Of a stretch of DNA of 64,000 nt, positions 4,207 to 6,616 are shown piece by piece. This stretch comes from a candidate division WOR-3 bacterium (lineage in GTDB: Bacteria > Hydrothermota > Tepidihabitantia > B3-TA06): positions 1,292 to 65,291 of the forward strand of contig CBFGKC010000010.1 in assembly GCA_965649265.1 (NCBI GenBank), in the 5' to 3' direction. Both the position numbers and the translations under genes were made by a program. Position 1 is the first letter of the stretch. Each line of letters starts with the position of its first letter. The notes beneath the pieces are model-generated. The model had not been told where the DNA came from. It ran no database searches and saw only the letters and a program-made list of their open reading frames with translations.

Positions 4207-4342
4207 ATCCTCTAAACAATCGACTGGACCGATCAAATCATGAATTAATTGCGTTTGATTTGGTTCGCAAAAATATTTTGATATTTAAAATGTCTGCTTT
4301 GCGAATCGTATGCTTGACTAACTACGTTGCACCGGCAAATAC

Positions 4343-4370
4343 TTGACATGACTTCCATGGGGCTTATAAT
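4343..4370 (+). promoter_or_regulatory. Strong sigma-70-like promoter for the ABC / G3E / Fe-S operon
   Basis: TTGACA at 4343-4348, a 16-nt spacer, then TATAAT at 4365-4370. A GAGGTGA ribosome-binding site sits 6 nt before the ATG at 4408. Confidence 0.6.
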
Positions 4371-4407
4371 TCTTGCATTGAATTCGACTAATCCTGAGGT
4401 GAAATTT

Positions 4408-5178
4408 ATGCAAGACATCAGAGAGATGACAATTTTGTGCGGTATTGATAAGAATGGGAACATGGAGGATGTTGAAAAAATTAGCATTTGCCAAGGTGAA
4501 ATTATCGGCATCGTTGGTCCGACCGGGTCCGGAAAAACAACCCTGATATCTGATATCGAACAACTGGCACAGGGGGATACCCCTTCCAGACGCAAAATCC
4601 TAATTAACGGGAACGAACCTGATAGAATCATGCGAACCGATCCTAGAAAAAAAAGAATTGCGCAGCTCTCGCAGAATATGCATTTCCTTGCGGACATGAC
4701 TGTCGAAGAATTTATTAAAATGCATGCCAAGAGCAGAAATCGCAACTCGGATACCGTTGACAGGGTAATCAGCATCGCGAACACTCTTACTGGCGAGGCC
4801 ATACATCCCAATCATCAACTTACGATATTGAGTGGAGGACAATCACGGGCCCTGATGGTCGCAGACATCGCAGTTGTCAGCAATTCCCCTATCGTTCTGA
4901 TTGACGAAATCGAAAATGCCGGGATAAAAAAACACGAGGCGCTGAAGCTATTGACCGCAGAGGGAAAGATAGTTCTCGTCGTGACGCATGACCCGTTGCT
5001 CGCGCTTATGACAAAACGCAGGATTGTCATGCGGAACGGTGGAATTCGCAAGGTTATTACGACTTCCACACGCGAAACGAACGTGTGTGCAGAACTAGCA
5101 AAACTTGATAATTACATGATGTCCTTGAGGAATACTATCCGTCACGGTGGATTGGTAGAGGAAACGGGCGCGGCGTGA
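4408..5178 (+). CDS. Divergent stand-alone ABC-type ATPase (nucleotide-binding domain only, no transmembrane domain)
   Basis: Walker [11 protein letters not shown]-loop, signature LSGGQ, Walker B LIDE and the H-loop VVTHD are all present. The segment after LSGGQ ([11 protein letters not shown]) departs from the transporter consensus. The track ORF start at 4327 would run through the promoter, so the start is placed at 4408. Confidence 0.75.
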
Positions 5179-5873
5179 AGCTCGTAGTGGTAGCGGGAAC
5201 TCCGGGGTCAGGAAAAACGTCAGTACTAATGCATACCATTAAATCTCTAAAAACCTGTGGAATTTCCCCTGCCGTTGTCAAGATTGACTGTCTCTGGACT
5301 GACGACGATAAAAGATTTAACCGGCTCGGAATACCGGTTCGCACCGGGCTGGCCAAGGATATGTGCCCCGATCACTTCGCGATATACAATACCGACAATA
5401 TGCTCAAATGGGCCGAAAGTCTTGACGCTAATGTGCTTTTCAACGAAACGGCCGGACTTTGTCTGAGGTGTGCCCCTTACCCGGATGGTTGCATCGCCGT
5501 TTGCGTAATAGATGTAACTACAGGACCAAATACACCCTTGAAGGTCGGACCCATGCTGACTACTGCCGACGTTGTTGTCGCCACAAAAGGAGATATCGTC
5601 TCCCAGGCCGAACGTGAAGTCTTCAGAGAACGTGTGCATGAAGTAAACCAAAAATGCAGGATAATTGAAGCTAATGGGCTTTCAGGGCAGGGAGCAGCTG
5701 AACTCGCCGAGGTTATTATGGAATTACCTGACCTTCCGAAGGAACTGTCTTTGAGACACAATGCTCCGCTCGCCATATGTACTCTTTGCACCGGCGAGAC
5801 AAGATTGGCAAAAGAACACCACATTGGTGTTCTTCGGCATATCGACGGTTTCACCGAATACAAAGGCGAATGA
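5175..5873 (+). CDS. HypB / UreG-like G3E-family P-loop GTPase, divergent, with a Cys-containing C-terminal tail
   Basis: P-loop GTPGSGKTS. The pattern matches Hyp[15 protein letters not shown] (compare IEGDQQT.NDA.RI), LAKDMCPDH (compare GKGCHLDAH) and [10 protein letters not shown] (compare ENVGNLVCP). G4 reads TKGD rather than NKxD. The tail contains CTLCTGE. The start overlaps the ABC ATPase stop in an ATGA arrangement. Confidence 0.65.
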
Positions 5874-6514
5874 TGCCTGATATAATCGATCTTCTTCCTG
5901 GATACAACTGCGGCGAGTGTGGTTCGCGGCAGTGCAGGGATTTCAGGGACGAGTTATTTGAAGGCAAGGCCAGCCTTTCCGACTGCCCGCATCTCGAATC
6001 AGAAAGGTTCAGGGCGAATACCCCGGAAATTCTCAAACTGCTTGGTTCGCAACGAACCACGGACAAAACAATTCGAGGAGTAATAGACGGCCTTGTGGCC
6101 GATTTCACTATTGCCCCCCTCCCTGGTGAATCTTCGTGCCGCGAGGATCTCTATCCTTTCGACCGGAATGTGGATGTTGATGCCTTGAAGGGAAAATTCG
6201 TACGCTACAGACCGCTTGGCTGCCCGGTTACCCATTTTGCTAAAGTCATCGAGGCAAGGAAAGGAATCCTGACCGTTCATCTTGTAGGCCCAATAAACAG
6301 GTTACGGGAGGACAAGGTAGAGCTTGTGGATATAGGAATCTGCATGGTTGCCGCCTTCGACGGTGTCGTTGGAAAGGGTAAGATACCCAGGGTAGGCCAG
6401 ACGGTGAAATTTGTGCCCGAACACTGCATGATGCAGAAGGTTCATTCAGGAGTCATAGTACATTCTGAGGGTTCAAGGGTGAGAATAGAGGGGATAGACC
6501 TGAAAGTCTTCTAG
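5870..6514 (+). CDS. RnfB-type N-terminal 4Cys Fe-S domain protein with an uncharacterised C-terminal domain
   Basis: [15 protein letters not shown]16-C reproduces the C-x2-C-x4-C-x16-C spacing of the Fe-S domain found at the N-terminus of RnfB (LPQSQCGQCGYPGC...). The ATG overlaps the TGA of the upstream GTPase. The track start at 5777 is an upstream over-extension. Confidence 0.6.
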
Positions 6515-6560
6515 GCCAACATCACCTTTCAAGTAAAATCGGACACCGTTTGAAAAGAGG

Positions 6561-6616
6561 GGCGATTCCTTGACGGTTTTGAGTCAATCGCCTCCCAGCG
6601 CCGGGCGGTTTTTTTA
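6561..6616 (+). terminator. Candidate rho-independent terminator after the Fe-S gene: GC-rich hairpins followed by T7
   Basis: ggcgatt...aatcgcc stem, then ccagcgccgggcgg followed by ttttttt (6609-6615). Confidence 0.4.

Follow-up and report, generated by a model that had tools for sequence, protein, structure and literature searches.

A gene trio for an ABC ATPase, a G3E GTPase and an iron-sulfur protein in a WOR-3 bacterium: apparent archaeal origin and a possible role in sulfite supply

The trio locus and its predicted products

A stretch of 64,000 nucleotides from a candidate division WOR-3 bacterium (contig CBFGKC010000010.1), called the window in the following, contains three consecutive genes for a soluble ATP-binding cassette (ABC)-type ATPase, a G3E-family GTPase and a COG2000-type iron-sulfur (Fe-S) protein. 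The same three genes in unchanged order were found at more than 50 independent genome loci, so this arrangement is far beyond chance. Its gene neighbours in three separate settings tentatively connect it to the supply of sulfite for sulfonate synthesis.

An initial annotation of this DNA had proposed three open reading frames (ORFs) behind one strong promoter, and both the coordinates and the promoter were confirmed (Table 1). The ABC ATPase gene starts with ATG and has the ribosome-binding site GAGGTG some 8 nt before this codon; relatives give the same gene call. The proposed coupling by overlapping start and stop codons also held, although only one of the two junctions had been read correctly. 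The second is indeed ATGATG, where the start codon ATG at 5870 shares bases with the TGA at 5871–5873, whereas the first, described as ATGA, is actually GTGA, formed by the start codon GTG at 5175 and the stop codon TGA at 5176–5178. This GTG start is backed by 232-aa homologues at 100% query coverage and by the P-loop GTPGSGKT at residues 8–15. A public 214-aa version of the GTPase (P0001) begins at a downstream ATG, by which the P-loop would be lost, and probably reflects a wrongly annotated start codon in the source record. The hairpin behind the third gene has a minimum free energy of -24.7 kcal/mol but a z-score of only -0.02 versus shuffled sequence, and a terminator scan made no call at about 6545–6616.

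Table 1. Positions of the features discussed in the text. Positions refer to the window unless another locus is named.
Feature	Locus	Position	Strand	Remarks
Sigma-70-type promoter	Window	4343–4370	+	TTGACA-16 nt-TATAAT; 12/12 consensus positions; 37 nt upstream of the ABC start codon
Soluble divergent ABC-type ATPase, 256 aa	Window	4408–5178	+	PF00005; Walker A/B, Q-loop, signature and H-loop readable
G3E-family GTPase, 232 aa	Window	5175–5873	+	PF02492; GTG start
COG2000-type Fe-S protein, 214 aa	Window	5870–6514	+	PF04060 at residues 9–41
Hairpin and T7 run 3' of the third gene	Window	6545–6616	+	Possible terminator, weakly supported
Promoter-like site of the TauE122 gene itself	Window	6708–6735
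Small TauE/SafE-family membrane protein (TauE122), 122 aa	Window	6772–7140	+	PF01925 on the L086, L089 and L097 orthologues
Bacterial large signal recognition particle RNA	Window	24727–24990		RF01854, 116 bits
CysH + TauE277 (277 aa) cassette	L097, likewise L099–L104	8613–10231 (L097)		Own consensus promoter, leader of about 100 nt
Variant locus with G3E-PF04060 fusion	L181	5421–7241
Paralogous G3E-ABC pair	L094	792–9502
Paralogous G3E-ABC pair	L092	6198–12062
Paralogous G3E-ABC pair	L182 (Fusobacterium vincentii, NZ_CP084075.1)	7823–16116

The domain assignments proposed for the three products agree with Pfam (PF00005, PF02492 and PF04060), and all quoted motifs were found, namely the post-signature region of the ABC protein, TKGD and the C-terminal CTLC of the GTPase, and C14-x2-C17-x4-C22-x16-C39 of the Fe-S protein. 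Profile searches with Pfam and NCBIfam, which the annotation had recommended, confirmed the domains and reached no curated NCBIfam family. The ABC ATPase scored 65.3 bits with PF00005 (threshold 25). It is a single nucleotide-binding domain with the Walker B motif LIDEIE, the H-loop THD and a signature followed by a family-specific extension (LSGGQ[ST]R[AS]L[ML].[AS]D). Its top match in the PDB has an E-value of 3e-15, and it is 43% identical to the orthologue of contig L178 and 51% identical to a paralogue from Fusobacterium. Divergence from the transporter consensus had been noticed from the letters and was borne out by NCBIfam, where the best transporter equivalog reached 65.7 bits against a cutoff of 254.85 and the energy-coupling factor (ECF) ATPase model 49.6 against 330. 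No permease adjoins the trio in the COG2000-type loci examined. ABC ATPases without a membrane domain that work with Fe-S proteins are known from SufC and from component A2 of methyl-coenzyme M reductase (MCR), the latter of which reportedly uses ATP to drive reductive MCR activation. The window ATPase has no sequence affinity to these past the ABC fold and, unlike them, is paired or fused with a G3E protein.

The G3E GTPase scored 44.4 bits with PF02492 (gathering threshold 20.7). Invariant in an alignment of the family (A3) are the P-loop, C64-P-D-H67, E91-TAGLC96-x-R-C99-x-P and TKxD. SQAEREVF and C202-x-x-C205 come close to invariance, the latter with Cys in 90% or more of the aligned sequences. 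The protein shares with HypB and UreG the SIMIBI/G3E fold, the P-loop and (T/N)KxD. Its CPDH aligns with the Ni-binding CPH motif of UreG, and its RCAP corresponds, by eye only, to the VCP motif of HypB. In contrast to both, it has an extra CxxC at switch II and another at the C-terminus, and its partner is an ABC ATPase rather than HypA/SlyD or UreEFD, with no Ni enzyme nearby. It lacks an N-terminal extension and has neither a CxxCGC Ni site nor a His-rich stretch. Scores with the HypB equivalogs (TIGR00073 51.7 bits, cutoff 121.2; NF007775 39.3, cutoff 385) and with UreG (TIGR00101 27.3, cutoff 204.2) are low, and neither hyp or hydrogenase genes nor urease/ureDEF genes were found in the gene neighbourhoods examined. 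As to COG0523/CobW chaperones, GCxCC and a CobW_C match are absent, and the scores are 11.9 bits for CobW and 12.4 bits for ZigA. With 49 of 1.84 billion representative proteins at E<=1e-30, the family is small and appears as a tight clade apart from HypB and UreG.

These results bear on the most ordinary explanation, that the trio is a HypB/UreG/CooC-like Ni-accessory set for a hydrogenase, urease or carbon monoxide dehydrogenase (CODH) encoded elsewhere, or that its ATPase is an orphan importer ATPase of the CbiO/EcfA type. By name, the best NCBIfam matches are HypB (E 8e-14) and various ATPases of ABC transporters, and the automatic annotation of relatives by the Joint Genome Institute reads 'Ni2+-binding GTPase involved in maturation of urease and hydrogenase'. 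All such models, however, score two- to ten-fold under their curated cutoffs, the family forms a clade of its own, and no hydrogenase, urease or CODH lies beside the trio in about 70 archaeal loci and the bacterial contexts examined. In a paralogous subfamily (subfamily B), FecCD permeases do occur, but are served by a separate ABC ATPase of their own. This explanation is thus very improbable. An accessory set for hydrogenase, urease or CODH was rejected on the sub-cutoff scores and on every context examined, and a CbiO/EcfA importer ATPase on the sub-cutoff scores and the lack of an adjacent permease in the trio loci examined.

The Fe-S protein scored 45.7 bits with PF04060 (threshold 23), and this match covers only the N-terminal module, in keeping with the earlier description of an RnfB-type N-terminus fused to an unfamiliar C-terminal domain. 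The cysteines of the module (C-x2-C-x4-C-x16-C) are nearly invariant in two alignments (A1 and A2). A variable linker follows, and then a conserved beta-rich C-domain (residues about 66–214). The same module occurs in AcsC/CdhE, the large subunit of the corrinoid iron-sulfur protein (CFeSP), and in RnfB, but the window protein has no TIM-barrel, corrinoid domain or ferredoxin repeats. A profile search of the PDB gave matches to the N-terminal module only, with E-values of 4e-6 to CFeSP and 4e-5 to RnfB. The RnfB models stayed at 16.9 bits against 68.7 (TIGR01944) and 26.2 against 445 (NF041836), covering residues 3–47 only and with no rnf genes present, and the gamma subunit of acetyl-CoA decarbonylase/synthase at 33.8 against 306. 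The view that no described system matches the trio was therefore upheld, as the specific NCBIfam models for HypB, UreG and RnfB all remained far below their cutoffs.

In the C-domain, C90, C118, H122, C158, C186 and H192 are invariant among close relatives, and C118, H122, C186 and H192 are also retained in the distant L178 orthologue. A model of the domain by itself, built with 99 sequences, is a confident all-beta prediction (pLDDT 91.5, pTM 0.86). No solved structural relative was found for the C-terminal 150 residues of this beta-barrel model, and the suggestion of a MOSC/TOBE/FeoA-like fold did not hold, as none gave a significant structural match. The model points to a new fold with a conserved Cys2His2 core. 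A second COG2000 Fe-S gene follows in tandem straight after the trio in three Methanothrix loci (L019, L028 and L038), and in a fourth (L054) a second copy lies a few genes downstream.

Archaeal relatives and coenzyme M genes

By far the most homologues of the GTPase and of the Fe-S protein belong to Methanosarcinales (Methanothrix, Methanolobus, Methanomethylovorans, Methanococcoides and anaerobic methanotrophic archaea of the ANME-2 group), with 55–75% identity. In neighbour-joining trees of all three proteins, the WOR-3 sequences group together as sister to ANME-2a/Methanocomedens and are nested inside Methanosarcinales. The agreement of the three trees indicates that the trio moved as a unit from a Methanosarcinales/ANME-2 archaeon into a WOR-3 bacterium. 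The window itself is clearly bacterial. It encodes a bacterial large signal recognition particle RNA, the trio is flanked by ordinary bacterial housekeeping and envelope genes, and the asparaginyl-tRNA synthetase (AsnRS) is 76–82% identical to proteins named candidate division WOR-3. WOR-3 relatives with 84–96% identical AsnRS retain the same synteny, from which the cassette appears to have been inherited vertically since its acquisition. The GC content of the trio equals that of the host. Compared with the relative L086, ratios of nonsynonymous to synonymous substitutions (dN/dS) are 0.03 for the ABC ATPase, 0.03 for the G3E GTPase and 0.18 for the Fe-S protein (AsnRS 0.05 for comparison). 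By these measures, the trio genes are functional in the bacterium and under strong purifying selection.

One contig labelled as bacterial, L009 (JAIWAT010000021.1, Anaerolineales bacterium), carries genes for a geranylgeranyl reductase (GG-reductase), a radical S-adenosylmethionine (SAM) protein, the trio, cysteate synthase and ComDE, which is the ANME-2a order, and its proteins fall among those of ANME-2/Methanosarcinales in each of the three trees. The contig is probably archaeal and mis-binned, rather than the product of a second bacterial acquisition.

For a survey of gene neighbourhoods, ORFs were called in 85 fetched loci and in the first 20 kb of the window, and the proteins were clustered. 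The search for a recurring partner, proposed in the initial annotation, led to cysteate synthase, which is found at most 6 kb from the trio in 56 of the 65 archaeal loci. The neighbour scored 526 bits with TIGR03844 (cutoff 324.9). In most archaeal loci it is the gene immediately upstream of the trio, and in Methanothrix thermoacetophila its stop codon overlaps the start of the ABC gene. The sulfopyruvate decarboxylase ComD/ComE (TIGR03846) was found within 6 kb in 14 of the 65. Three gene orders occur: cysteate synthase followed by the trio; GG-reductase, radical SAM, trio, cysteate synthase and ComDE (ANME-2a); and cysteate synthase, trio, ComD and ComE (Methanolobus, Methanomethylovorans). 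TauE or phosphoadenylyl-sulfate (PAPS) reductase genes were not found near the archaeal trios. In ANME-2 cluster archaeon HR1 (L015), an FwdF-like polyferredoxin of 426 aa (7159–8439) lies directly upstream of the trio in place of cysteate synthase.

Coenzyme M (CoM) is indispensable for methanogenesis and for the anaerobic oxidation of methane and alkanes, and both archaeal CoM pathways start from sulfite, although the strict anaerobes concerned live on sulfide. The source of this sulfite "remains unclear" (PMC6286981). The association of the trio with CoM genes is itself already known: the legend to Figure 2 of a recent study notes an ATPase/GTPase/COG2000 trio adjoining CoM genes in six methanogen orders, "role unknown" (PMC12068725, PLoS Genet 2025). 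It assigns no function and is silent on bacterial copies, a sulfoquinovose context and the CysH replacement described below. Beyond that legend, no other literature was found on COG2000 genes or on nitrogenase-like systems with G3E proteins. The window trio belongs to the same families, in the same order and direction, and is distinguished by its bacterial host and by the lack of detectable CoM genes nearby.

In five loci, a COG1900-like protein, assigned by eye from sequence only and belonging to a family of candidate CoM synthases, is encoded at most 8 kb from the trio. Together with the cysteine-rich proteins and the CoM operon setting, this would suit a role in sulfur insertion or relay, either as an alternative or auxiliary thiolation of sulfoacetaldehyde to CoM or as a persulfide carrier. 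Thiolation is, however, already covered by MMP16 and L-ASST in Methanosarcina acetivorans, and neither the UDP-sulfoquinovose synthase context nor the CysH replacement, both described in the next section, involves thiolation, which makes such a role quite improbable.

Two settings outside coenzyme M synthesis

In the lineage of the window the gene order is a cyclic nucleotide monophosphate (cNMP)-binding protein, AsnRS, the trio, the small TauE122, Ctp and Tmk. A sister lineage, with 80–82% identical AsnRS, has the same flanks, but a cassette of CysH and TauE277 is found in place of the trio. This slot was seen in L097 and L099 (identical in sequence), L101, L102, L103 and L104, with L100 ending inside CysH, which gives five to six distinct contigs. 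The slot CysH is a phosphoadenylyl-sulfate reductase (NF002537 173 bits, cutoff 154). No riboswitch was found in its leader with Rfam, and consensus promoters are the sole feature shared by the intergenic regions of the trio and CysH cassettes. A more distant relative, L105, has neither cassette, and its AsnRS gene is followed directly by the small TauE gene. As TauE122 is present with the trio, with the CysH cassette and with neither, it is a conserved neighbour of the slot and lies outside the transferred trio. The TauE family includes sulfite exporters. The trio thus sits in the position of a classical sulfite-producing enzyme, beside a member of a family that contains sulfite exporters. 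CysH has no homology to the trio, which comprises two P-loop NTPases and a new, putatively catalytic domain. Bacterial adenylyl-sulfate (APS) reductases also use a [4Fe-4S] cluster.

A tblastn search of the whole 64-kb window with cysteate synthase, ComD/E, one protein of the geranylgeranyl-reductase family and one radical SAM protein gave no match, and Pfam analysis of 20 further ORFs (14–40 kb) gave housekeeping and cell-envelope genes only. The earlier statement that no hydrogenase, urease, CODH, mutase or ABC membrane component is nearby was likewise borne out.

The third setting was found on two contigs, L178 and L179, with an orthologous trio whose ABC, G3E and Fe-S proteins are 43%, 43% and 32% identical to those of the window. 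A 376-aa homologue of UDP-sulfoquinovose synthase (SQD1) lies 5 nt downstream. It matched NF041015 with an E-value of 1e-139, far above other families, and Arabidopsis SQD1 over its full length with 6e-93. UDP-sulfoquinovose synthase condenses UDP-glucose and sulfite (PMC4388408). Cysteate synthase is a pyridoxal phosphate (PLP) enzyme and SQD1 a short-chain dehydrogenase/reductase (SDR); their folds are unlike and they share no substrate other than sulfite, so sulfite is what the two contexts have in common.

On L178 (1–16711) and L179, the trio and the SQD1-like gene stand within a long co-directional glycan cluster, which on L178 includes a PseB-like gene, a formyltransferase, glycosyltransferases, a sulfatase-family gene and many methyltransferases. 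The L178 contig also has matches to SU10_adaptor and CHAP domains and may be a phage or mobile element, for which PHROGs gave no confirmation. A scan of viral contigs with the trio gave one match, in the flank of a Mu-like prophage, which was uninformative, and tblastn against phage genomes gave no match.

A possible sulfite-forming module and its alternatives

The three proteins probably act together as one complex, because their start and stop codons overlap and because natural fusions exist. Fusions of G3E and ABC are represented by P0255 (613 aa) and P0256 (509 aa), and fusions of G3E and the [4Fe-4S] module by P0259 and P0263. In the L181 variant an ABC gene is followed by the G3E-PF04060 fusion P0259 and then by a 69-aa 2x[4Fe-4S] ferredoxin, and no recognisable COG2000 C-domain gene was found there. 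A paralogous subfamily with 44–50% identity also has G3E and ABC genes, sometimes fused, together with an SBP_bac_6-like third protein that appears to be cytoplasmic. These paralogous pairs adjoin FecCD-type or PsaA/ZnuA-type metal importers (Table 1), which supports a metal-handling core of the G3E-ABC pair. On L094 the pair is also beside an uncharacterised nitrogenase-like enzyme of the NflH/D/K type. One member occurs in a cultured bacterium, Fusobacterium vincentii, whose sequence NZ_CP084075.1 is 2.1 Mb in size, yet labelled as a plasmid in PLSDB.

Based on these observations, it is proposed, as the most plausible reading though still short of being probable, that the trio is a self-contained, NTP-dependent redox metalloenzyme module from which sulfonate synthesis receives its sulfite or another S(IV) donor. 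Candidate sulfur substrates would be sulfide or persulfide, thiosulfate, sulfate and APS. The proposal rests on the three separate contexts, cysteate synthase, the CysH slot and the SQD1-type gene, since all of them involve sulfite. The COG2000 protein would be the working subunit, with its N-terminal [4Fe-4S] module exchanging electrons with ferredoxin and the sulfur chemistry taking place at the Cys2His2(+Cys2) metal or cluster site of the beta-barrel C-domain. The G3E protein, with its HypB/UreG-type Cys/His ligands and two extra CxxC pairs, and its obligate ABC partner would load or remodel this metal site, and the likely recipient of the metal is thus the COG2000 protein itself. The NTPases might possibly also gate low-potential electron transfer. 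The product would go to cysteate synthase, as the first step towards CoM, in Methanosarcinales and ANME, and to UDP-sulfoquinovose synthase in the L178-type lineage. WOR-3 would have received the cassette complete from an ANME-2-like archaeon, at the place where the sister lineage has its PAPS/APS reductase. Complex formation and metal insertion are inferred here, as is sulfite as the product, the latter from the gene neighbours alone. The initial idea of a self-contained NTP-driven metallocentre module agrees with the fusions and with the paralogues next to metal importers, whereas the contexts favour sulfite and sulfonate chemistry over the generic metal delivery it implied.

Metal delivery within the CoM pathway also needs to be considered. 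The trio may be a dedicated metallochaperone set that matures another metalloenzyme of this pathway with the client encoded elsewhere, such as the CoM synthase MMP16 or the oxygen-sensitive ComDE, and the COG2000 protein would then be only an adaptor or scaffold. MMP16 carries the annotation of a metalloprotein and is found in clusters of CoM genes. In archaea the trio lies inside CoM operons that also contain ComDE, and both the metal ligands of the G3E protein and the importers next to the paralogous pairs would be expected for a metallochaperone. Several points make it unlikely. The WOR-3 and L178 copies are conserved and under purifying selection with no CoM genes nearby, the tightest partner is a PLP enzyme and the second an NAD-dependent SDR with only sulfite in common, and the COG2000 C-domain owns an invariant Cys/His site and looks like a client rather than an adaptor.

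The abundance of cysteines in the GTPase suggests a further alternative. The nitrogenase Fe protein is a SIMIBI-class NTPase, and the G3E dimer might likewise be a NifH-like redox engine with a cluster bridged by the CxxC and CPDH cysteines, in which GTP, and ATP via the ABC protein, drives low-potential electrons from the PF04060 module into a substrate that is hard to reduce, such as thiosulfate or sulfate, and no metal is delivered. Each G3E monomer has six conserved Cys/His residues (four invariant and two in at least 90%), above the need of HypB or UreG. Further hints are the L181 arrangement, in which the [4Fe-4S] module is fused to G3E and followed by a ferredoxin with no recognisable COG2000 C-domain, the polyferredoxin upstream of the trio in L015, and the paralogue adjoining a nitrogenase-like reductase. 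However, no G3E protein is known to carry an Fe-S cluster, the paralogues near PsaA/ZnuA-type importers look like ordinary metal handling, and such an engine would not account for the strictly conserved site in the C-domain of the Fe-S protein. A redox engine of this kind is therefore rather doubtful.

The proposed supply of sulfite by the trio is itself weakened by a number of observations. The three proteins have no resemblance to known sulfite-forming catalysts (siroheme, molybdopterin or CysH types), and the function is deduced from sequence and context. Some trio loci (L015, L020 and L082) are without an adjacent sulfonate synthase. The archaeal loci are phylogenetically clustered, mostly in Methanotrichaceae, and the genus Methanosarcina is absent among the 80 loci kept. 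Because the CoM gene cluster of M. acetivorans, consisting of cysteate synthase, comDE and MMP16, has been described without the trio, the trio may not be universally required for CoM synthesis. The CysH replacement and the SQD1-type context each represent a single evolutionary event, and the slot might be no more than a hot spot for insertions. In the window, tblastn with cysteate synthase and ComD/E over 64 kb and Pfam on ORFs to about 40 kb revealed no sulfite consumer. The SQD1 homologue scored below the NCBIfam equivalog cutoff (465.6 versus 575), and C90 and C158 of the C-domain are not kept in the distant L178 orthologue.

With even more reserve, and as a possibility only, a wider role can be considered. 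The trio might be a new kind of enzyme, an NTP-driven Fe-S metalloenzyme composed of a G3E protein, a soluble ABC protein and a redox subunit of new fold, that forms sulfite anaerobically. It might thereby be the missing source of sulfite for CoM in methanogens and ANME, and a cassette portable between archaea and bacteria, possibly on mobile elements, and able to partner any sulfonate synthase that consumes sulfite. If true, this would give the S(IV) pool a new biochemical entry route, define a new partnership of G3E GTPase and ABC ATPase, offer a new target for the inhibition of methanogens and document the transfer of a module of an archaeal cofactor pathway into a bacterium. Should the trio be a metallochaperone set only, it would still represent a new subfamily of G3E proteins that has an obligate ABC partner and a client of new fold. 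While the trio had been noticed in one figure legend (PMC12068725) and is uncharacterised, no earlier report was found of the bacterial copy, the replacement in the CysH slot, the sulfoquinovose context, the fusions or the domain of new fold. The evidence beyond the CoM context, that is, the CysH slot, the SQD1 adjacency, the fusions and the Cys/His site, makes the trio a concrete and testable candidate.

Elsewhere in the window, two adjacent genes on the minus strand (10621–11985 and 12083–13858) encode large secreted repeat proteins with a near-identical C-terminal motif, (A/P)WPRFHHDN(L/G)NTGRA(D/N), which may be a sorting or anchoring signal.

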